Shown: piece after piece, positions 2,628 through 63,350 of the stretch
Position numbering within the stretch: the first letter of the stretch is position 1
How the letters are laid out: each line of letters starts with the position of its first letter
Source of the DNA: an uncultured Prevotella sp.
GTDB taxonomy: Bacteria; Bacteroidota; Bacteroidia; Bacteroidales; Bacteroidaceae
NCBI GenBank assembly: GCA_900541335.1
Contig: UQJC01000004.1
Span: forward strand, 3,808 to 67,807
DNA: 64,000 nucleotides
Direction: 5' to 3'
Position numbers and translations under genes: made by a program
Notes under the pieces: model-generated
What the model was told of the DNA's origin: nothing
Database searches by the model: none
The model's input: only the letters and a program-made list of their open reading frames with translations

Positions 2628-4022
2628 ATGAGCTTCAATCTTCCCAAGACAGACAAAAAACGTGTAGTCATCGTAGGCGGCGGTTTCGGCGGTTTGAAAC
2701 TGGCAAACAAACTCCGCAAGAGTAACTTCCAGGTCGTATTGATCGACCGTAACAACTACCACCAGTTTCCTCCACTGATTTACCAGATAGCTTCAGCCGG
2801 TATCGAACCGAGTTCCATCTCATTCCCCTTCCGTAAAATCTTCCAAAAACGTAAGAACTTCTTCTTCCGTATGGCGGAGGTGCGTTCTATCTTCCCTGAA
2901 CACAAGATTATTCAGACTTCTATCGGTAAGGTGAAGTATGACTACCTCGTTCTGGCAGCGGGTGCAACTACCAACTTCTTTGGCAACAAGAACGTGGAGA
3001 ACGAAGCAATGCCCATGAAGAATGTGAGCGAAGCCATGGGCTTGCGTAATGCCTTGTTGGACAACTTCGAACGTGCACTGACCTGTGCGACAGACGTTGA
3101 ACGCCAGGAGTTGCTTAACATTGTAATCGTGGGTGGTGGTGCCACGGGTGTAGAAATTGCGGGTGCACTGAGTGAAATGAAGAACTTCGTGTTGCCGAAG
3201 GACTATCCCGACCTTCCGACCTCTCTCATGCACATTTATCTCGTAGAAGCGGGTCCCCGACTCCTTCCTGCCATGAGTCCGGAATCGAGCACTAAGGTGG
3301 AACAGTACCTCCGCACGATGGGTGTCAACGTGTTGCTCAATAAGATGGTAACCGACTACAAGGATCACCACGTGATGCTCAAGGACGGAAGCTCTATCGC
3401 AACGCGTACCTTTATCTGGGTGAGTGGTATCGCCGCTCAACCGGTAGGTAACTTGGATCCTTCGCACTTGGGCCGTGGTCGCCGCATCATTGTCGACGCA
3501 TTTAACCAGGTGAAGGGACTTGACGGTGTGTTCTCTATCGGTGACCAGTGCATTATGCCTGAAGGCGATGAGAATTGGAACGGCGGTCACCCGCAGTTGG
3601 CACAGGTCGCTATTCAGCAAGGAAAGCAACTGGCCAAGAACCTCAAGCGTCTGGAGGAAGGCAAGGAGATGAAACCCTTCCACTACAAGAACCTCGGTAC
3701 GATGGCCACCGTGGGACGTAACCGCGCTGTCACCGAATTCTCGAAGATGAAGTTTGGCGGCTTCTTTGCCTGGGTACTGTGGTTGGTGGTTCACCTGCGC
3801 TCTATCCTCGGTGTGCGCAACAAGATGATTGTGCTCTTCAACTGGCTTTGGAACTACGTTTCCTATTCACAGTCTCTGCGCATGATTATCTATGCCAAGA
3901 AGGCGAAGGAGGTAATTGAGCGCGAACAGCGACTCGCTTCGACCCACTGGGGTACGGACCTGCTGAGCGAAGGTTCAGAGGATACCTCCAATAACCAATC
4001 AGCGGACAAGAAAGCACAATAA
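2628..4022 (+). CDS. ndh: Type II NADH:quinone oxidoreductase (NDH-2), FAD-dependent pyridine nucleotide-disulfide oxidoreductase
   Basis: N-terminal Rossmann motif VVIVGGGFGGLKLA and a second dinucleotide-binding motif IVIVGGGATGVEIAG. 464 aa with a C-terminal amphipathic or membrane-anchoring region. Confidence 0.85.
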   Translation: MSFNLPKTDKKRVVIVGGGFGGLKLANKLRKSNFQVVLIDRNNYHQFPPLIYQIASAGIEPSSISFPFRKIFQKRKNFFFRMAEVRSIFPEHKIIQTSIGKVKYDYLVLAAGATTNFFGNKNVENEAMPMKNVSEAMGLRNALLDNFERALTCATDVERQELLNIVIVGGGATGVEIAGALSEMKNFVLPKDYPDLPTSLMHIYLVEAGPRLLPAMSPESSTKVEQYLRTMGVNVLLNKMVTDYKDHHVMLKDGSSIATRTFIWVSGIAAQPVGNLDPSHLGRGRRIIVDAFNQVKGLDGVFSIGDQCIMPEGDENWNGGHPQLAQVAIQQGKQLAKNLKRLEEGKEMKPFHYKNLGTMATVGRNRAVTEFSKMKFGGFFAWVLWLVVHLRSILGVRNKMIVLFNWLWNYVSYSQSLRMIIYAKKAKEVIEREQRLASTHWGTDLLSEGSEDTSNNQSADKKAQ

Positions 4023-8022: not shown

Positions 8023-11000
8023 ATGAAGTTCAACTTACTCGTAGGCCTGTGCTTGCCCCTGGGTGCATCGGCACAGACCGCTGACCCGCTGTCTGCAATC
8101 GACAATGCGGGAAACCGTTGCGAAGTAGTCATTCCACCGGGCTATGACACTCCCTCGCAACAACCATTCTCTATCCATCCGTTGGGTGAACCTTCGCGCT
8201 TTCCGTTACCCGAAACGAACAAACAAATCTTTGACAATGGCTATGAATATGTATACCGTCTTGCGCTTTGTGTGAGTCCGGAATACGTTAATGGCACATA
8301 TGGCGGTGACTTGACGAAAGTGCGCCAATGGGTCAGGGAGATTGGTGAATACCTCAACATGGTTTACCAACGCGACTTGGGCATCCGCTTTATTGTCATC
8401 GAAGACGACAAGTTGTTATTGACAGACTCCCCCAACTATCCCATTGAAGACAGCTATGGCACTAAAATTATCAACGAAAAGATTGGTACTGAAGCCTACG
8501 ACTGTGGCATTCTGATTCGCCCGACACACAACGGGCTGTCGGGGCGTACCCTTTTGGGTGGCGTCTACCAGTCCTATAATAAGGGTAACGCTATGGCCAA
8601 TAGCGACATGGGCACCATTGCCCACGAATTGGGTCATCTGTTCGGTGCCAAACATACGCACCAAAAGAACGATGCACTCTGTACCGAACCTGGCTATGGG
8701 CAATCCATCATGTCGTATGGCGAGCCACGCAATGCATTTGCCCTTTCGAGTGTACTGGCCATTCGTTCCCGCTTAAAATCGCAGTGTTACTATACCAGTT
8801 CAGACCGCAATCCCAACGAGATTGAAGGTGGAATACCCGAACCTGACGCGAACATTCCTTATGTAGTAAAAAGCACGTATACGAAACCAGTGCTTGACCG
8901 CCGTCAACTGCGTTCGAACTATACCATCCCCGAAGGCACAAATTTCCAGTTCTATATCCCGACTTCCAATACCTCCGCTACGTTCACATACGGAGCTCAA
9001 ACCTATGATCCAGGTGTCTACGGTTACCAAACCAATGCCCTCCAGCCGACTTACAACCTCGGGAAACATCCCTGCGTCATGTTCCAGCCGTATTATGACG
9101 AAGGGCATAACAACGAAGGCAAGACCGATGCCGTTTTGGTACCCTACTCTGATGCATTCCGTGCCGGCCGCTATCAGTTCTTGTTAGCAGCCGCCGACCA
9201 TGGCCGTTACGACATCGAACCGGTCTATCTACACATCGTCAAGGGCAAGCCCTTTAAGATGAAAACGGACATTAAGATGGACCAATTTCAGGGCAAGCCG
9301 CTAAGTCTCTCCTGGGAACCCTGTCAGGAACTTTACGGAACCGACAGCAAGGTTCGCATCCTGCTTTCCGATGACTTTGGTCAGACCTATAAATATGTAC
9401 TCGATGACAATGTACCCAATACGGGCAGTTGGAATGGGTATTGGCCGTATGTAACCATTGAAAAAACCGGTTATCGCAACTTTAGTCAGCCCATACGTGG
9501 TGGTGTCATCAAGATTGAAGTGAAGGACGAAGCGGCCTACTGCGTTTCAAAAGAGTTGCCTGCCTATTTGAATCCCAACATCACCTATGTAGGCGGTTTC
9601 TTACTGGGTGACCGCAGCACGTACGTACGCTTCAAGGACGGACCACAACCTTACCTCGAAGTAAGTGACGAGAGCCAAGTGCCTGCCCTCAGCGATCTGC
9701 AGGCTTACCACAAGAACGATACGGGTAAGACTGTTTGGGCGAAGGGCGAGGAAACCCGCGATGGCCATGTGATACGCCGCCGCTGGACAGCTTCCATCAA
9801 CGGTACTTCGAGTACTTACACCCAACTGATTGTCATCCAAGATGAAAGTCTGTTGGAACGCAAGGGACTTGAAAATCGTGCAGACGAACTTCGCCCTCAG
9901 GCCCTGGATCTCTATCGAAACAAGGGTGCCATGGGGTATCCAAAGACTGATTTGCCCGAGATGCAGGCTTTCCTAAAGGCTTATCAGGCTGTCTTTAACA
10001 CCGAAGGCAAGGTGCAGCCCGATGCGACAGACGAAAAACTCCAGCAACTGGGGCAGTCACTGATCGAACTTGCCGCCATCGGTGATGACCAAGTGGTACG
10101 TCCCGCTTCGAAGGGATATTATCGCCTGCGCAATTACCAAGACCTCTACGGCCGTGCTGCTTATTACTACTTGAAACAAGGTACCGATGCGCAAACACCC
10201 GACATTTTCACTCCTCAAGCCGAAGAAGCTACGCTGTGGCGGTGTATGGAAAGTGAAGGGAAGTTTACCTTCGTGGCTGAAGACGGCCGCAAACTATACA
10301 TCGAACAACTCATCAACCCGGGATACCGCGAAACGCTCCGACTCGATCGCGGTTACACGTGGGGAGCCTTTACGCTGGTAGACGAAACGGGAGCTTGCGG
10401 CCAGTTAAGCCAGAACGGCAATTGGGTTACGCGCAACGAGAACTATGCTTCCGACCCTCAGGGCTACCGCACGAACCGCAACAGTTTGGTATCGACCGAC
10501 TTCCAGTGGCTGAGTGTTCCTGCGGTTGAAGCAAGCACCTCTGCCGGCAAGGGGGTGTGGAATATTCTCACCGACCCGCAACGCCTCACGCTCAACGATG
10601 CTTACACCCACCTGCATGTAGGTAACTCTGTCTCGGTAAAGCAGCTGCAACTCACGCGCACCTTTGCCGACACCGAATGGCAACCGCTATACCTACCCTT
10701 TACCACCAAGGTTCAAGAGTGGATGAAACATTGTGAGGTGGCGCAAATAGACGGTCTCGCCTGGCAGGGGAACCACGCTACGGGAACACCCGCCCAAACG
10801 GTATTGGAATGGGTGAAAGTGACGGAGGGAACCTTACGGGCAAATCAACCCTACCTCATCCGTGCGAAGCAAGCTGGCACATTTACGTTCGACTTCTCTC
10901 CCACAACCGTTGAGCCTACGCTTGCATCGCGCATCGACTTGTCCCAACCTCAGGTCAAGGCTTCCCTCAACGGCAACTACGAAGTATTAACGGGTGAACA

Positions 11001-12093: not shown

Positions 12094-14172
12094 TTACTTT
12101 CGGACACTGGTCAAATAGTCTGCAAACTGCTCACGGGTACCGTTGAATACATTGATGTCGACTTCGCCGTGAATGCCCCGTACGCGACCATAGGGAGTCA
12201 GTTGCCAATGCAGCAGGCGCACGTAGGGTTTGAACTCGCCGTAACGCGCAATCCACACATCATACTTCTGCAGGGCTGCCGGAGCCTGTGGCAAATGGTG
12301 GTTGACAAAGTTCTGACCGACATAAAGCACCGGCCGCTTGCCGCATCGCTTTTCGACCGTACGGAGCCACACCAAAACCTGCGCGAACATCACACTGTCG
12401 CCACCGGCACAGCGAATCTGATAGTCGGTAGGCTCTAAATCGAGCACGGGAGGCAGGTCGTGCGGCCGGACAGACGACCGGCGAAGGAAATGAGCCGCTT
12501 GTTGTGCCCCGCTGCTGGTCAAACTAAAGAAATGATAAGTTCCCACCGGAATGGCATGACGACGTACTTGACGAAGATCGGTGGCATAATAGGGGTTGAG
12601 CACCGTACGTCCCTCAGTTGACTTGATATAGACGAAGGAAACGGGGTAATCTACGTTTCCCTGCACTCGACGCCCTGCGCCGAGACTGGTGATGCGCAAC
12701 CGCTCCCAGTCAATGGCGTATTTCTTCTTGCCCTTACCGTGCTGGTAACGTGAAATGTCGATACCATAGATGCGATCGGCAGTATAGACCATGCGTTCAC
12801 CACGAAACTTCCCGTGTCGCCAGTCACCACAACGTACCAATTGACCGGGACGGGCACTAAATCCGTGTCCACTGCGTTGCCCATCCTTCCACGCACCTGC
12901 ATAATGCTCCTTCCAAGGTTTCGTTTCGACTCCCAGACCTGAAGGTTGGTAACGGGCATTAAATTCTCCTCGGTACGATGCCTGCCGCGTGAGGCGTACA
13001 CCCGTTACCAGGGTATCGGCCTGCCATTCTCCTTCATAAACCGTGTCGCCCGGAGCGTAAAGTCTGCCCCACCCCTGTCGCAAAGGACGCTGACCTGTAG
13101 CGTGGACAACCTGCCCCTCGTAAAGAAGGCTGTCAACCGTCAGCATGCGTTGTACACTGAAAGCAGAACGAGGTCTGCGCGGCGTTGCAGAACGTAACCA
13201 ACCTTGAAGCCAGGCACACACGTTGCGTGCGGCCCATACAGGAAGGGGGTGAACATCGTAAACCAAACGGGCTATCCGATGCCCGTCAATCCGTTGACCC
13301 CCGCCTTGAAGTCCGCATAGCTGCCCCGAAGCATTCACCCAGGCACCTCCCTCGGTAGCGGGATAAGCTGTTTCGGTAGCCTTCAACACCTGAGGTTGTG
13401 CGGTGGCAGTCGGACCGCCAAAGTCCTGGTATGCGTAGAGTTGGGGGTTGCCTACGTAGGTCGGTAATCGGTAAATGGTAAAACGACTGCTTCCAGCGGG
13501 CAAAGTTGCACCATCTAACTGTAATAGAAGCATGCCATCGCGCCTAACGACACGGTGTGCGCTACACAGGGTATCGTGAGCGGCGGGACGCACACGAACC
13601 CAACTGCGCAAGTAAGCTTCGCGCGAGGGTTGCTGCAATCCTTGCTGGACACGGCGATACAAACTGTCAAGTTGTCGAAGTTCACGACCGATACGCTCGC
13701 GATAAGCCATAACTTCGTTGTACCCATCGTCGACCACAGAGTGACGACGGGCGTACTCATCGAGCGACTGGCGCACAGCACGGTGGTGTTGGCGTGCTTC
13801 AATCAAGAAGCTGTCGGCGACAGAGAGTCTACGCCGTACGTCAGCCCCAGCAAGCGTATCGGGAACACGGCCTACCAAACTATCGGTTGTCAACAAATGG
13901 CCCTCGCGACTGATAAACACAGCGGTAAGGTCCACCCGCGTCACGACACTGTCGGGATGGAGCGAAACGGGATAGAAACAATCGCTGCCCAAGGGAAAAT
14001 AAAGGGTGTCGCCCTTGGCCAGGGGCAGGACATAATAACTGGTTGCCTCGACACGGCAGAGGCTGTCGAGGCGGGTCTGTCGGCGGTTGGGAACAAAAGC
14101 CCACAGCAGGCCTGCCAAAAGCAGAACCGCTGTGGGAATCAGAATTTTAATCGAAATGTTGTGTCTGTTCAT
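12094..14172 (-). CDS. GH25-family muramidase (lysozyme) with N-terminal signal-anchor, central MORN-like repeats and C-terminal GH25 catalytic domain
   Basis: C-terminal motifs YGIDISRYQ…IDW, FVYIKSTEG, GTYHF, LDLE and DINVFNG match GH25. MORN-like YEGEW/YRGEF/G.G repeats lie in the middle. N-terminal hydrophobic anchor. Confidence 0.75.
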   Translation of the reverse strand: MNRHNISIKILIPTAVLLLAGLLWAFVPNRRQTRLDSLCRVEATSYYVLPLAKGDTLYFPLGSDCFYPVSLHPDSVVTRVDLTAVFISREGHLLTTDSLVGRVPDTLAGADVRRRLSVADSFLIEARQHHRAVRQSLDEYARRHSVVDDGYNEVMAYRERIGRELRQLDSLYRRVQQGLQQPSREAYLRSWVRVRPAAHDTLCSAHRVVRRDGMLLLQLDGATLPAGSSRFTIYRLPTYVGNPQLYAYQDFGGPTATAQPQVLKATETAYPATEGGAWVNASGQLCGLQGGGQRIDGHRIARLVYDVHPLPVWAARNVCAWLQGWLRSATPRRPRSAFSVQRMLTVDSLLYEGQVVHATGQRPLRQGWGRLYAPGDTVYEGEWQADTLVTGVRLTRQASYRGEFNARYQPSGLGVETKPWKEHYAGAWKDGQRSGHGFSARPGQLVRCGDWRHGKFRGERMVYTADRIYGIDISRYQHGKGKKKYAIDWERLRITSLGAGRRVQGNVDYPVSFVYIKSTEGRTVLNPYYATDLRQVRRHAIPVGTYHFFSLTSSGAQQAAHFLRRSSVRPHDLPPVLDLEPTDYQIRCAGGDSVMFAQVLVWLRTVEKRCGKRPVLYVGQNFVNHHLPQAPAALQKYDVWIARYGEFKPYVRLLHWQLTPYGRVRGIHGEVDINVFNGTREQFADYLTSVRK

Positions 14173-14310: not shown

Positions 14311-16800
14311 TTACATACCACTGGGAGCACCTCCCTGTTCGTTACCTTGTCCACCCGTACTCTTCACATCGGTATTTTCGATGGAACGTACCACCTTACG
14401 CACCGAGGCTTTGAGGTCGCCGAGGCGGTAACGGATGCCGATGGAGAAGGTGCCTTGTTTCATGCTCGAACGCGTAATCATACGGTATTGTTCCGTTTGG
14501 GTGATGTTCGTGTAATGCACACGCTTCGGCAGGAAACCACCCGCTCCGAGCGAAACGGTCAGGCGGTCGTCTTTGAGAAAACCGCGGCTGAGGTTGAGGT
14601 GGTAAAAATAGTAACTGGGACTCTTCCCTTCGAGCGAAACAGATTTGCTGCCGCCTCCACCAAAGAGGCTGAACTTGAGTTTCCAAGGCAAAGTCTGCGT
14701 GACACCACCGTAGCCGTTGGCAGCAAAACCCCAATTGTGTTGGCGAAGCTGGCGCACACGGTAGTCTGAATAGCTGCCGCTGGCGTTGACAAAGATGGAA
14801 GTAGTCTTGCCTACAGTCCAGTTGAGGTAAGCGTTGAGGTTCCACACTTTCTCATGCAGGAACTCGCCGTAGGTGGAGTGCAACAGGCCGTCCTTCAGAA
14901 AAGTATAGTCGGTCATGCCGTTGTTGCCAAACGAATAGTTCAGGCTGAGGTTGAGCGAGAGTTTCGGACCAAACGTGTTGTAAGCCAACTCGAACTGGTG
15001 ACTCTGGGCACTCGTCAGGTTGGGATTACCATAGCTGACGTTACCGGGCGAACTGTAATCGGCATAAGGCGAAAGCATGTCGATGGAGGGACGGGCAATG
15101 CGGAGGTTGTAACCCAATTTGAGCATTTGCGTAGTCGTCAGGCTGTAAGCCATGCTCAAGGAGGGCACCCAGTCACTCAAGTGCGAGCTAAACGAAGGAC
15201 GTTTGCCGTCGGGGTAGGTAGCTCGATAATGATAATACTCGTAACGGCAACCTGCCAACATCGACCAGGACTTGAGTTTAAGCTTGTATTCCGCGTAAGC
15301 AGCTCCGATGTCACCGCGATGGCGGAAGCGGAGGCTCTGCGCTTCGTTGCGAACGAACTCCTCCTCACTTCCAGCCTTGCGACTCCACTCCGTGTTGTCG
15401 CTCTGATTGAGTCGGCTGATGTATTTTGCTCCGACCGACAGGGTATGCAACTTGCCCAAGGGGGTAGTAAAGTCGAGTTGCACGGTATGCTCGTTGTTGA
15501 GCTGGTCTGGGTCGGTACGGCGGTCAAGGAGTTCAAGGGTTTGAGGCACCTGTACGAGGTCAGAATAAATGCCCTGCGTCTGGTTGTTCGTGGGGTTATG
15601 GCCAAAACGATAAGAGAACGTCAGATTACAATCCTCGGCAAAGGTGTGTTGGAAGTCTGCCGAGGCGTTGAGATTGGTGGAACGCATCTTGCCCTTGTTC
15701 CACTGGTGGTAAGAGTAGACGGGATTCCACTCACGGTCGCTCATCCGGAAGTCTACATCGGCATCGTAGTCCACCTTCCAGCCAAAAAGCCCGACGGAGA
15801 CACTGAGCAAGTCCTTGGGCGAAAATTCATAGCTGGCATCGAGGTTGCCATGTTGAAAGAAACTCTTGTTCGTTTGCGAATTGGCTGTCGTAAACCAGTG
15901 ATTGACATCCTCGTCAAAGGCTTCGCGCTCTCCTGTGGAGTATGACGCAGGCTGTTTTTGGAGTCCGGCACCATAATAAGCCGAAAGGGTTAACTTGCCC
16001 AATTGAGCCATGCCAAAGAAACCGGCATTGCCACCTCGGTTGCTGAAGGTGAGACTCGGGGTCACCACGTAACCCGAAGTTGTCACCTGGCTTTCGGTCA
16101 CAATGTTGAGCACACCTGCCACTCCCTCTGCATCATACTTTGCGCCTGGGTTGGTGATCACTTCCACCTTCTTGATGGTCGAGGCGGGAAAGCTTTTGAG
16201 CACTTCCTTCGGGTTGGAAGTCATCATCTTATTGGGCTTACCGTTGACGTACACCGCAAAACTGTTGCTGCCGTTGACCTTGATATTGTCTTCACCATCC
16301 ACCGTAACCATAGGCACCTTGCGCAACATTTCGAGCGTCGTGTTGGTTTGGGCTTCGGGGTCATCGGCCATGGAGTACGTGAGTTTGTCAATCTCAGCAC
16401 GAACCAACGGCTTTTGCGCCGTCACGGTGGCCGTAGCGAGTGTATTGCTCAGCTCTTTCAGATAGAGCGTGTCGAGTTTAACCACCGATTTTCCCTCCGT
16501 GAGCGTCACTTCGCGGCGCAAAGGTTGCATACCGATAACTATTGCTTCGAGGGTAAAAGTTCCGTGTCGCGGTACGGGAAGGCTGAATTGTCCGTTAGCT
16601 TGGGTCGTAGCCACACGCAACGGCTTTCCCTTTACTCCTTTTTCCATCAAGCGAAGCGTGGCAAAGGCTTGCGGTTCGTGGGTAGCTGAGTCGCAAAGTA
16701 TGCCCTCAACGCGCAACTTGGCGGACTGGGCATAAACAGTTACAGATGTTGCAAGCAGAGCTGCCGTCAGGCTGACCAGTCTGCATACAGTATGTTTCAT
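14311..16800 (-). CDS. Outer-membrane beta-barrel / TonB-dependent-receptor-like protein with N-terminal carboxypeptidase-regulatory-like domain
   Basis: Signal peptide and a CarbopepD_reg-like N-domain (LRVEGILCDSAT…). Long beta-strand-rich region ending in an aromatic C-terminal residue pattern. 829 aa. Confidence 0.7.
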   Translation of the reverse strand: MKHTVCRLVSLTAALLATSVTVYAQSAKLRVEGILCDSATHEPQAFATLRLMEKGVKGKPLRVATTQANGQFSLPVPRHGTFTLEAIVIGMQPLRREVTLTEGKSVVKLDTLYLKELSNTLATATVTAQKPLVRAEIDKLTYSMADDPEAQTNTTLEMLRKVPMVTVDGEDNIKVNGSNSFAVYVNGKPNKMMTSNPKEVLKSFPASTIKKVEVITNPGAKYDAEGVAGVLNIVTESQVTTSGYVVTPSLTFSNRGGNAGFFGMAQLGKLTLSAYYGAGLQKQPASYSTGEREAFDEDVNHWFTTANSQTNKSFFQHGNLDASYEFSPKDLLSVSVGLFGWKVDYDADVDFRMSDREWNPVYSYHQWNKGKMRSTNLNASADFQHTFAEDCNLTFSYRFGHNPTNNQTQGIYSDLVQVPQTLELLDRRTDPDQLNNEHTVQLDFTTPLGKLHTLSVGAKYISRLNQSDNTEWSRKAGSEEEFVRNEAQSLRFRHRGDIGAAYAEYKLKLKSWSMLAGCRYEYYHYRATYPDGKRPSFSSHLSDWVPSLSMAYSLTTTQMLKLGYNLRIARPSIDMLSPYADYSSPGNVSYGNPNLTSAQSHQFELAYNTFGPKLSLNLSLNYSFGNNGMTDYTFLKDGLLHSTYGEFLHEKVWNLNAYLNWTVGKTTSIFVNASGSYSDYRVRQLRQHNWGFAANGYGGVTQTLPWKLKFSLFGGGGSKSVSLEGKSPSYYFYHLNLSRGFLKDDRLTVSLGAGGFLPKRVHYTNITQTEQYRMITRSSMKQGTFSIGIRYRLGDLKASVRKVVRSIENTDVKSTGGQGNEQGGAPSGM

Positions 16801-16998
16801 TGGGCTTTGTGTTTAGTTGGGGGCAAAAGTACAATTTATAAGGGAAAATAAGGAGAAGAAAAAGTGAGAAACCCCACACAAAAATGAGAAGGAAAGCGGA
16901 TGAAGAGGTGAAACAATTTCACACACTTCGAAGGAACTCTAAAGACGGGATGTTTCAGCTGGATCCAAACGATGAAAACTGCAAGAAGGAGAATAAAA

Positions 16999-17160
16999 CG
17001 ATTTCCCAACGGCTTGGGAAACTGTTTTAAGGAGCTAGAAGGGTTTCCCAACGGCTTGGGAAACTGTTTTAAGGAGCTAGAAGGGTTTCCAAACAGCTTG
17101 GGAAACCGTTTTAGGGAGCTAGAAGGGTTTCCAAACAACTTGGGAAACCGTTTTAGGAGG
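16999..17160. repeat. Tandem array A: ~4 x 42-bp direct repeats each containing palindrome GTTTCCCAA-cggc-TTGGGAAAC
   Basis: Units at 16999, 17042, 17084 and 17126. The last unit is truncated or diverged. Units 1-2 are identical. Confidence 0.9.
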
Positions 17161-17524
17161 ATTGTAGGGTGTCAAAAGGTAAATGGAGCTACCTGAACAG
17201 GATTTAGCAGACACGAAATCACGTAACGCCCCCTTACTCTATCGTTTATCGAACATTAAGAGCCACTGGTTCGGCTACTTCAAACAGCATGCTGACGGTC
17301 AAAAAACAATGCGCTATAGCCCAATGTCCAACTCTGGAGACCAATCATCAGGGATTCAAAAGACTGTCATATAAACGGCGGCATACGCAAAGAATAAACC
17401 ATGAACCTTGTAGAAGCACATTTCCTCAAAAAAAGAATGGGGCTGCTTAGCTCTTGTATATCAATTAAAAACTCAACTTTTCTCACCACATCGAACATAA
17501 TGATTTAAAAAAATCGCTCAGACA

Positions 17525-17556
17525 TTTGGTCAGTTCTGAGGAATGCACTACTTTTG
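17525..17556 (+). promoter_or_regulatory. Candidate Bacteroidetes sigma-AB promoter for tRNA (-33 TTTG, -7 TACTTTTG)
   Basis: TTTG at 17525-17528 and TAnnTTTG match at 17549-17556, with about 20 nt spacing, roughly 40 nt upstream of the tRNA 5' end. Confidence 0.45.
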
Positions 17557-17597
17557 CACTCGCAAACGGGAAACAACAACACCGCAAGCAAGAAAAT

Positions 17598-17671
17598 GGC
17601 GCGATAGCTCAGCTGGTTAGAGCGCATGATTCATAATCATGAGGTCCCCAGTTCAATCCTGGGTCGCGCTA
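17598..17671 (+). tRNA. tRNA with CAT anticodon (elongator tRNA-Met or lysidine-modified tRNA-Ile2)
   Basis: Manual cloverleaf fold: acceptor GGCGCGA/TCGCGCT, D stem GCTC/GAGC, anticodon stem CATGA/TCATG with loop TTCATAA, T stem CCCAG/CTGGG with loop TTCAATC, discriminator A. No encoded CCA. Confidence 0.85.
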
Positions 17672-17675
17672 CAAA

Positions 17676-17713
17676 AGGCAGTGACAACTTAAAGGTTGTC
17701 ACTGCCTTTTTTC
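17676..17713 (+). terminator. Rho-independent terminator after tRNA
   Basis: 13-bp perfect stem AGGCAGTGACAAC/GTTGTCACTGCCT followed by T6. Confidence 0.8.
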
Positions 17714-38471: not shown

Positions 38472-38683
38472 ACGTTTCAGTTAGGAGATACCTACGCGAC
38501 AAAAATACCGCTTTTCCCTTAGGTCAGCTGAATTTGGCTCCATGGAAGGGCAAGAAAAGGGAAAAATGGAACAGAAACGCGAGAAAAAGGTTGGCTTACA
38601 TCCCAATCAAACGGGTAGACACTCTGGCAACGCGCCCCTGTCGATATGACAAAAGGGCTGAAACAATAGAAAAGGACTTGTTT

Positions 38684-38852
38684 CAAGGATAAAAATTGTC
38701 AGATGGAAGGAAGAAGGACAATTTTCAAGGATAAAAATTGTCAGATGGGAGGAAGAAGGACAATTTTCAAGGATGAAAAATGTCAAATGGGAGGAAGAAG
38801 GACAATTTTCAAGGATGAAAAATGTCAGATGGAGGGAAGAAGGACAATTTTT
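38684..38852. repeat. Tandem array B: 4 x 42-bp direct repeats, each with 9-bp inverted arms AAAATTGTC/GACAATTTT around a 16-nt homopurine spacer
   Basis: Units at 38684, 38726, 38768 and 38810 with a few substitutions. About 210-380 bp upstream of the tolC start. Confidence 0.9.
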
Positions 38853-62611: not shown

Positions 62612-63350
62612 CGGAATAGCTGTAAAGCTGAATTTTTAGAGGGTTGAACTGTGCGAAACCACGTAAATTCCGCTTTTGCAGCAGTCTGCACTGTGCGAAG
62701 CCACGTAAATTCCGCTTTTGCAGCAGTCCGCACTGTGCGGAACCCTAAAAATTCCGCTTTTGAAACGGTCCGCACTGTGCGAACTCCTAAAAATTCCGCT
62801 TTTGAAACAGTCCGCACTGTGCGAGCCCCTAAAAATTCCGCTTTACAAGGGTTTTTACGTTGCCAACCCCTAAGAAAACCGATTTTGCAACGGCTCGCAC
62901 AGTGCGAACCGCTAAAAATTCCGCTTTGACAACAGTCCGCACGCTGCGAGCCCCTAAAAATTCTGCTTTGACAATAGTCCGCACTATGCGGAACCCTAAA
63001 AATTCCGCTTTTGAAACGGTTCGCACTGTGCGAACTCCTAAAAATTCCGCTTTTGAAACAGTCCGCACTGTTCGAGCCCCTAAAAATTCCGCTTTACAAG
63101 GATCTTCACATTGCCAACCCCTAAGAAAACCGATTTTGCAACGACTCACACAGTGCGAACCGCTAAATATTCTGCTTTGACAACAGTCCGCACGCTGCGG
63201 AACCCTAAAAAATCCGCTTTTATAACAATCCGCATTGTACGGAACACAAAAAAACTCGCTTTTGCGCTGGTTCGCACGGTACGGAGCCTTTCGTTATTCA
63301 CTTTTACGACTGAACGCACCGTGCAAAACACCGCAAAATGCGAGTTTAGA
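62612..63350. repeat. Tandem array C: ~17 x 42-bp direct repeats (consensus CTAAAAATTCCGCTTTTGAAACAGTCCGCACTGTGCGAACTC) with 252-bp (6-unit) higher-order repeat; each unit carries palindrome GTYCGCAC-T-GTGCGRAC
   Basis: Units align by eye across ~740 bp. Units 3-8 (62744-62995) are re-duplicated as units 9-14 (62996-63247). The array decays at both edges. Confidence 0.9.

Follow-up and report, generated by a model that had tools for sequence, protein, structure and literature searches.

The sopC centromere of plasmid F comprises twelve tandem units of 43 bp, and SopB binds a short inverted repeat in each. The BOX elements of Streptococcus pneumoniae, arranged as boxA–boxB(n)–boxC, carry a 45-bp boxB in variable number together with terminal modules and occur in more than 100 dispersed copies. 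SSR phase variation, as in the nadA TAAA tract of Neisseria and the 7-bp hmw repeats of Haemophilus, works with units of 1–7 bp, which affect the spacing of the core promoter, sites for regulators or the reading frame. Within the Bacteroidales, the BrickBuilt elements of Porphyromonas gingivalis are made of 23-nt units with a leader and a tail that have inverted ends, and are present in 19 copies per genome (PMC4596501). Finally, M. tuberculosis has promoter tandem repeats with units of 54–58 bp that begin or end only 12–29 bp away from the gene, the promoter being part of the unit; their phase-variable copy number changes promoter output and is hidden by short reads (PMC12817950).

The array described here resembles each of these systems in part. 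It lies in a window of 64,000 nucleotides (the whole stretch of DNA that was analysed) from a human-gut Prevotellamassilia sp., a name borne by protein cluster members and by the identical acetate kinase, and proteins identical to those of the window occur on human-gut metagenome contigs. TRF resolves positions 17002–17159 as one tandem array of period 42 (3.8 copies, 94% matches, score 253), and a separate repeat search returns the identical 42-bp register. Taken between flanks that are conserved across strains, this array (array A) occupies 17002–17169, a length of 168 bp or exactly 4 × 42 bp (4.02 units flank to flank). The four 42-bp tandem repeats that the first-pass annotation had described from the letters are thus borne out by both searches, with 4.0 units between the flanks. 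The units abut directly, with no spacers between them, and a 23-nt core pattern sought with at most three mismatches has four matches in the 64-kb window, all of them in array A, where shuffles give an expectation of 0.00. The locus is laid out as follows, with no strand assigned to the units and their flanks:

12094–14172, GH25 muramidase gene, next after the receptor gene (Pfam and synteny)
14311–16800, minus strand, TonB-dependent-receptor-like outer-membrane beta-barrel gene, 829 aa (Pfam CarboxypepD_reg, Plug, TonB_dep_Rec_b-barrel and OMP_b-brl_3)
16824–16831, minus strand, predicted Bacteroidetes −7 box of the receptor gene, TACTTTTG (pattern scan; 24 nt before the ATG, 170 bp from array A)
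16984–17000, receptor-proximal flank, AGAAGGAGAATAAAACG, conserved and an anchor in all strains
17002–17043, array A unit u1
17044–17085, array A unit u2
17086–17127, array A unit u3
17128–17169, array A unit u4, the final 14 bp of which are a degenerate linker copy
17170–17185, tRNA-side flank, TGTCAAAAGGTAAATG, conserved and an anchor in all strains
17549–17556, plus strand, predicted −7 box of tRNA(CAU), TACTTTTG (pattern scan; 42 nt before the tRNA)
17598–17672, plus strand, tRNA-Met(CAT), or tRNA(CAU), divergent from the receptor gene (ARAGORN; Rfam RF00005 at 68 bits)
17673–17710, strong terminator of the tRNA (terminator scan)

With moderate confidence, we read array A as a young, single-locus, hypervariable VNTR whose length is altered by slippage or by unequal recombination; probably near-neutral, it would at most tune the divergent promoters on its two sides. 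Copy number, unit order and distribution bear on this reading.

First, the locus was recovered with identical flanks from many conspecific contigs, and the flank-to-flank distance divided by 42 was always n.02. In these exact 42-bp steps, conspecific genomes range from 2 to 11 units, all copy numbers being taken from assemblies, in which short-read values are possibly collapsed and 10 and 11 are the only long-read values:

2 units, L090
4 units, the window, L001/L092 and L097
6 units, L086 (contig of a JGI metagenome)
7 units, L093, L094 and L095
8 units, L091
10 units, L060 (long-read polished, 2.76–2.78 Mb)
11 units, L061 (long-read polished, 2.76–2.78 Mb)

The premise of the repeat expansion suggested in the first-pass annotation, that copy number varies, therefore holds: instead of being fixed, the array is polymorphic between strains of one species. 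A further contig, L002, begins inside array A and carries at least 7 units, and the short-read contigs L003, L062, L063 and L087 terminate in or at it. Because short-read contigs start or end there, array A is an assembly breakpoint, and it accounts for repeated contig breaks and possible repeat collapse in short-read metagenome assemblies. Intergenic head-to-tail units upstream of a gene, conserved flanks, whole-unit differences between strains and under-reporting by short reads are all common to array A and to the MIRU-VNTR and M. tuberculosis repeats. With head-to-tail units in the 10–100 bp range and whole-unit steps between conserved flanks, array A qualifies as a bacterial VNTR or minisatellite, a kind already known. 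It also offers a verified marker, highly polymorphic, in a human-gut species of Prevotellaceae that is uncultured or little studied.

Second, the order of units differs between alleles. The 69 units of 10 alleles fall into 28 distinct types, with most polymorphism concentrated at four positions. Written with one letter per distinct unit, the maps read abcc, abefgc, mnobiec, pqrbjkqstu and wbbbxyyzAje, and they differ even between alleles of equal length. Both ends are fixed across alleles, the tRNA-side end as a degenerate unit and the receptor-side end as a perfect-palindrome unit, and the interior units form a mosaic. Judged from the allele sequences, fixed ends combined with a mosaic interior are the signature of a minisatellite with intra-array slippage or recombination.

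Reasoning from minisatellite dynamics, we propose that the array arose by tandem duplication of a 42-bp segment that surrounds a weak, terminator-like palindrome, in the spacer of the divergent receptor and tRNA(CAU) promoters, and that it would since have gained, lost and reshuffled units through slipped-strand mispairing and unequal or intra-array recombination, with the unit hairpin probably favouring slippage. The effect would most plausibly be passive: the stretch ahead of the receptor promoter would differ in length and insulation by 84–460 bp, and short-read assemblies break. We infer both the slippage and recombination route and the lack of need for a sequence-specific function, and no result here requires such a function of array A. 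Near-neutrality, which we infer from an absence of signal, has several observations counting against it: array A is present in every conspecific genome seen and is never wholly lost, and, as described below, its receptor-proximal unit almost always keeps a perfect palindrome with a T-run, an ORF on the tRNA strand is open in all alleles, and array B is placed at nearly the same distance from another −7 box.

Third, the array is narrowly distributed. A search of JGI metagenomes with the unit pattern returned two contigs, both of them the array A locus, and the hairpin pattern produced 56 single matches in 185,579 species genomes, in unrelated taxa and in about the number expected by chance, with no array among them. 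The unit pattern had 0 matches in viral contigs, blastn matched the unit to no plasmid or phage, and about 100 kb of conspecific loci held no further copies of the motif. On the sequences searched, the array A unit is private to one locus of one species. The next receptor homologues are only 51–57% identical, and neither an array nor a related hairpin was found upstream of the orthologous receptor genes at L065, L088 and L089. Array and related hairpin are likewise absent from the loci of a sister species (‘Prevotella sp. CAG:891’-like, AckA 93% identical; loci L103–L108), in which the receptor–GH25 pair sits at another genomic place and 21 kb contain 20–22-bp repeats and no 42-bp array. At L064, the tRNA-Met/receptor/GH25 arrangement is kept, and the same spacer holds a different, AT-rich 21-bp palindromic repeat. 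Array A is absent from the receptor loci of the relatives compared and is therefore young, and not a conserved regulatory device of the receptor gene. Searching the literature on Prevotella and Bacteroidales for VNTRs or repeats of 42 bp yielded nothing specific.

The same searches bear on the idea that array A is a dispersed mobile or REP-like element, namely a MITE of the BrickBuilt, BOX or BIME type, or a CRISPR-like array. Intergenic tandem units with hairpins would suit such an element, and BrickBuilt is a precedent within the Bacteroidales (PMC4596501): array A and BrickBuilt have in common the host order, a strictly intergenic location, spacerless tandem units, distances of 49–591 nt from genes and a proposed influence on flanking transcription. 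Unlike BrickBuilt, array A is built of 42-bp hairpin units at one locus, with no leader or tail. The likeness to BOX, a variable number of intergenic units of about 45 bp with hairpin potential, has a similar limit, since array A is unique and lacks terminal modules; MIRUs, too, are a dispersed family, whereas the array A unit occupies one locus. The repeat search found no terminal inverted repeats and no leader or tail modules at array A, the flanks at 16984–17000 and 17170–17185 not being mutually inverted, and neither flank recurs at the two other arrays of the window (arrays B and C, below). Given a single locus in every collection searched, we consider a mobile origin barely credible. A CRISPR array was rejected separately, as the units have no unique spacers.

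Each unit is centred on an inverted repeat, and the repeats differ in quality within the allele of the window (no strand assigned):

16994–17029, palindrome that encloses the core of unit 1, TAAAACGATTTCCCAA-cggc-TTGGGAAACTGTTTTA, at the receptor-proximal boundary (inverted repeat, 16-nt arms, 88% complementary)
17043–17064, hairpin core of unit 2, GTTTCCCAA-cggc-TTGGGAAAC, the sole perfect 9-bp palindrome of this allele
17085–17106, hairpin core of unit 3, GTTTCCAAA-cagc-TTGGGAAAC, with one A·G mismatch
17127–17148, hairpin core of unit 4, GTTTCCAAA-caac-TTGGGAAAC, with one A·G mismatch

A perfect 9-bp inverted repeat with the spacer cggc had been ascribed to every unit, which is true of unit 2 only: the core of unit 1, ATTTCCCAA, is an 8-bp perfect stem within the longer imperfect 16-nt palindrome (16994–17029), and units 3 and 4 are mismatched. 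Among the 69 units of the 10 alleles, the core is perfect in about 30% and imperfect in about 70%. One of the polymorphic positions belongs to the stem: a T/G difference there disrupts pair 7 in 20 of 28 unit types. Among these types, which are very similar to one another, 0 pairs have changed on both sides. Because pair 7 is so often broken and double-sided changes are absent, the hairpin, to judge from the unit types, is a property of the unit that shows no sign of upkeep by selection. DNA folding gives z values of −2.7 to −3.9 for the unit hairpins, and −9.3 kcal/mol (z −3.9) for the boundary palindrome at 16994–17029.

These data weigh on the proposal that array A is a set of operator-like sites, in which the imperfect palindrome TTTCC(C/A)AA-N4-TTGGGAAA would bind a dimeric regulator and the 42-bp spacing would place successive sites on one helix face for cooperative control of the divergent promoters. 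A palindromic footprint of 20–22 bp is typical of helix-turn-helix dimer sites, and successive units are a whole number of helical turns apart. The half-site, however, is asymmetric in the roughly 70% of units with an imperfect palindrome, with no compensatory change, and the number of sites varies 5-fold between strains. Nor does the motif recur in the approximately 100 kb of the species or upstream of orthologues in any relative examined, and no regulator gene adjoins array A or lies within 10 kb of it. The operator-like array put forward in the first-pass annotation is accordingly not upheld, and we regard it as highly improbable.

The anatomy of sopC, with tandem units of about 42–43 bp centred on a short inverted repeat, is strikingly similar to that of array A. 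Unlike sopC, array A is chromosomal, has no parA/parB or sopA/sopB nearby, spans a 5-fold copy-number range, is one of three unrelated arrays in 64 kb and has a core that does not fit the chromosomal parS consensus: that consensus had 0 matches at up to three mismatches, and neither ParA/ParB nor SopA/SopB is among the Pfam families of the flanking genes (~6 kb to GH25/Reprolysin, ~9 kb to Tex, the window’s left end). A parS or centromere function was rejected on these grounds, in spite of the sopC-like units of about 43 bp with an inverted repeat in each.

The −7 promoter consensus of Bacteroides and other Bacteroidetes is TAnnTTTG, and array A falls within the 716-bp spacer that separates the two divergent predicted core promoters. 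Its start would lie 170 bp upstream of the receptor −7 box and its end some 380 bp upstream of the tRNA −7 box, both boxes being predictions. The distances first reported to the two genes were correct, as the array lies 202–369 bp upstream of the receptor ATG at 16800 (minus strand) and ends 429 bp before tRNA(CAU) at 17598–17672. Pattern scanning found no TAnnTTTG box within array A on either strand and none facing it, no sigma-70-like promoter was found in the array, and the promoter-box scan made no upstream transcription unit leading into it evident.

The main alternative to the near-neutral VNTR, possible but unlikely, is a contingency or tuning locus, in which copy number would alter transcription of the receptor–GH25 operon or the tRNA. 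An upstream element would be shifted or multiplied, or the divergent promoters insulated, giving heritable, reversible states. Surface-exposed receptors are typical targets of phase variation, and array A, at 2–11 units highly polymorphic, stands upstream of just such a gene. Array B is equivalently placed before a TolC-family efflux operon (174 bp upstream of the predicted −7 box, compared with 170 bp), and the 54–58-bp phase-variable promoter repeats of M. tuberculosis provide a precedent (PMC12817950). Unlike those repeats, array A contains no promoter motif, and some 170 bp separate it from the predicted −7 box downstream; with no box in the unit and at this distance, it therefore neither duplicates a promoter nor shifts the spacing of core elements. 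Also against a contingency locus, orthologous receptor genes lack any array, and array C, which has the same period and is more variable, lies between convergent genes with no promoter to regulate. If copy number does affect the receptor operon, minisatellite-based expression variation of the kind recently demonstrated in M. tuberculosis would extend to gut Bacteroidales. To our knowledge, phase variation in this order is otherwise known mainly from DNA inversions.

Two more specific geometries were examined and rejected. An SSR-type phase-variation switch resembles array A in having a repeat tract of strain-variable length upstream of a surface-protein gene; the array A unit, at 42 bp, is intergenic and outside core promoter and ORF, the distance being 202 bp to the ATG and 170 bp to the predicted −7 box. 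A promoter tandem repeat is excluded by the lack of a promoter box in the unit, the nearest being that at 16824–16831.

We also considered whether array A is a transcribed element. It could yield a hairpin-array RNA ending at the terminator-like proximal unit and insulating the receptor promoter, or a small protein in which the number of 14-residue repeats (MKTARRRIKRFPNGLGNCFKELEG...) varies. The whole-array RNA folds are far more stable than those of shuffled sequences (z −6.9 and −7.1, one per strand), a stability that is trivial because a palindrome is repeated in tandem. The receptor-proximal unit with its flank fits a simple terminator consensus on both strands, and a perfect palindrome followed by a T-run is kept there almost always across alleles; the internal units have no T-run on the receptor strand. 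The RNA hairpin of the proximal unit reaches −14.5 kcal/mol and those of the internal units −9 to −13 kcal/mol, compared with −26 and −30 kcal/mol for two genuine terminators of the window. The boundary palindrome looks like a bidirectional intrinsic terminator with a weak stem, and it may have been the seed of array A.

One frame is open through array A on each strand. On the tRNA strand, this is an ATG-initiated ORF (16972–17196, plus strand; MKTARRRIKRFPNGLGNCFKELEG...) that is open in all alleles and scales in length with the number of units, which speaks for a repeat protein. Against a protein product, differences between units in the open frame of either strand are synonymous and non-synonymous in a ratio of about 1 to 3, no Pfam family matches the open frames, and gene callers left the tRNA-strand ORF uncalled in the full-length assemblies L001 and L060. 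Array A as coding sequence was rejected on the missing Pfam match and the lack of synonymous bias. Against an RNA product, no TAnnTTTG box faces the array on either strand, and at the gathering threshold Rfam recovers only the tRNA; a sensitive Rfam scan of 16750–17620 adds one chance-level match, which lies outside array A. The array therefore does not belong to a longer annotated ncRNA, an alternative that the first-pass annotation had named, and with unit hairpins much less stable than the real terminators here, we judge a transcribed element very unlikely.

Phased curvature, also suggested for the array, is contradicted by a wedge model in which the ratio of end-to-end distance to contour length is 0.986 for array A against a window mean of 0.950, that is, a straighter predicted path; with model parameters after Bolshoy and Trifonov 1991, these values are only indicative. 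In the same model, one array A unit spans 3.96–3.97 helical turns.

Finally, the window holds two other arrays:

38681–38851, array B, in the interval from the ackA terminator to the predicted −7 box of the TolC-family efflux operon
62648–63264, array C, between the convergent efp and murF genes

Like array A, both have a period of 42 by TRF. As had been noted from the letters, the array A unit is unrelated to theirs: even in the best rotation and strand, 17–18 of 42 positions match, the same as the mean of shuffles, and the units of all three arrays are mutually similar at chance level only. The three arrays have no flanks or leader in common. The unit of each carries its own significant hairpin by DNA folding, and the architectures are a 9-bp stem with a 4-nt loop, a 9-bp stem with an 8-nt loop and a 6-bp stem with a 3-nt loop. 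Simple slippage does not explain why three unrelated arrays have a 42-bp period in common.

A lineage-specific process or constraint that yields hairpin arrays of exactly 42 bp, or four helical turns, whatever their sequence, would offer an explanation, acting through a length-measuring duplication or a phased DNA-binding or nucleoid protein. The only three minisatellites in about 82 kb of the species all have period 42, in unrelated sequences with hairpins of their own and hypervariable copy number; 403 kb of unrelated prokaryotic DNA contain no array with a period above 27; and model twist comes to 3.96–4.02 turns per unit. The cases number only three, however, their hairpin architectures differ, no flank or leader unites them, their units show no 21-bp sub-period, and the sister species has its 20–22-bp repeats instead of a 42-bp array in the 21 kb at hand. 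We know of no candidate protein or mechanism for arrays of fixed 42-bp length, and we hold such a process doubtful. Should the 42-bp period hold across the genome, it would suggest a length-specific mechanism or a phased constraint as yet undescribed in Bacteroidota.

Arrays B and C vary between strains in the same way as array A does, in 42-bp steps. Array B has 2–7 units (4, 6 and 6 in long-read assemblies), and array C has 8.4–26.7 copies (19.1, 20.8 and 26.7 in long-read assemblies), a variability that exceeds that of array A. Together, the three arrays supply three markers within 64 kb for MLVA-style strain tracking.

Array A, the four 42-bp hairpin units (17002-17169) between the minus-strand receptor gene and the tRNA(CAU) gene, is a systematic assembly breakpoint, with five independent short-read metagenome contigs from conspecific genomes ending in or at the array. 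Unit counts for array A taken from short-read assemblies may be collapsed.

Contig ends at array A (contig position)
L002, position 1
L003, position 1
L062, position 1
L063, position 1
L087, position 5811

The window holds two further arrays with the same unit length, whose unit sequences are unrelated to that of array A.

Further arrays in the window
38681-38851, array B, 42-bp minisatellite, 4.1 copies
62648-63264, array C, third 42-bp minisatellite, 14.7 copies

Each array B unit has its own hairpin, GACAATTTT-N8-AAAATTGTC, and the array is situated between the ackA terminator on one side and, on the other, the predicted -7 box (a Bacteroidetes promoter element, TAnnTTTG; 38500-38507) of a TolC-family efflux operon. 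Across strains, array B ranges from 2 to 7 units, read from shifts of -84 to +126 bp in the TolC start codon. Array C, flanked by the convergent genes efp and murF, contains a higher-order repeat of 251 bp in the window and spans 8.4 to 26.7 copies among conspecific genomes, with long-read values of 19.1, 20.8 and 26.7.

The TolC promoter region AAAAATACCGCTTTT (38501-38515) is identical at 14 of 15 nt to array C units, AAAAATTCCGCTTTT, a match (blastn E ~0.04) that is probably due to chance. Arrays A and B each lie ~170 bp upstream of the predicted -7 box of a minus-strand outer-membrane gene, and in both a purine-rich plus-strand linker adjoins the hairpin (AAGGAGCTAGAAGGG, 17030-17043, and GGAAGGAAGAAGGAC, 38705-38720, respectively). 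Because the flanking DNA is similarly purine-rich, the shared linkers may reflect strand composition only.

The tRNA-Met(CAT) gene next to array A is single in the window (17598-17672) and in L092, and forms a tandem pair in four other conspecific contigs, L060 (1667-1949), L061, L091 and L093 (7084-7366), through a 208-bp duplication that includes leader and terminator. In some strains an extra Acyl_transf_3 gene lies between the tRNA and a 379-aa gene, apparently a small insertion/deletion polymorphism located 3′ of the tRNA.

Extra Acyl_transf_3 gene
L061, 374-1288
L091, 6886-7800
L094, 6887-7945
L096, 6887-7801

The order of tRNA-Met, receptor and GH25 muramidase genes is kept in L064, a relative with 54% receptor identity, where the equivalent spacer (3569-3658) holds 4.3 copies of an AT-rich 21-bp unit that differs from that of array A and contains the palindrome TTCAAGTCTTGAA. 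In the sister species (L103-L108; AckA 93% identical), a 21-bp tandem repeat, AACAAGCTCGGAACTAATTTC, lies upstream of ackA (9523-9611) and varies from 2.2 to 4.2 copies across long-read genomes; two-copy repeats of 20 and 22 bp are also present in these loci.
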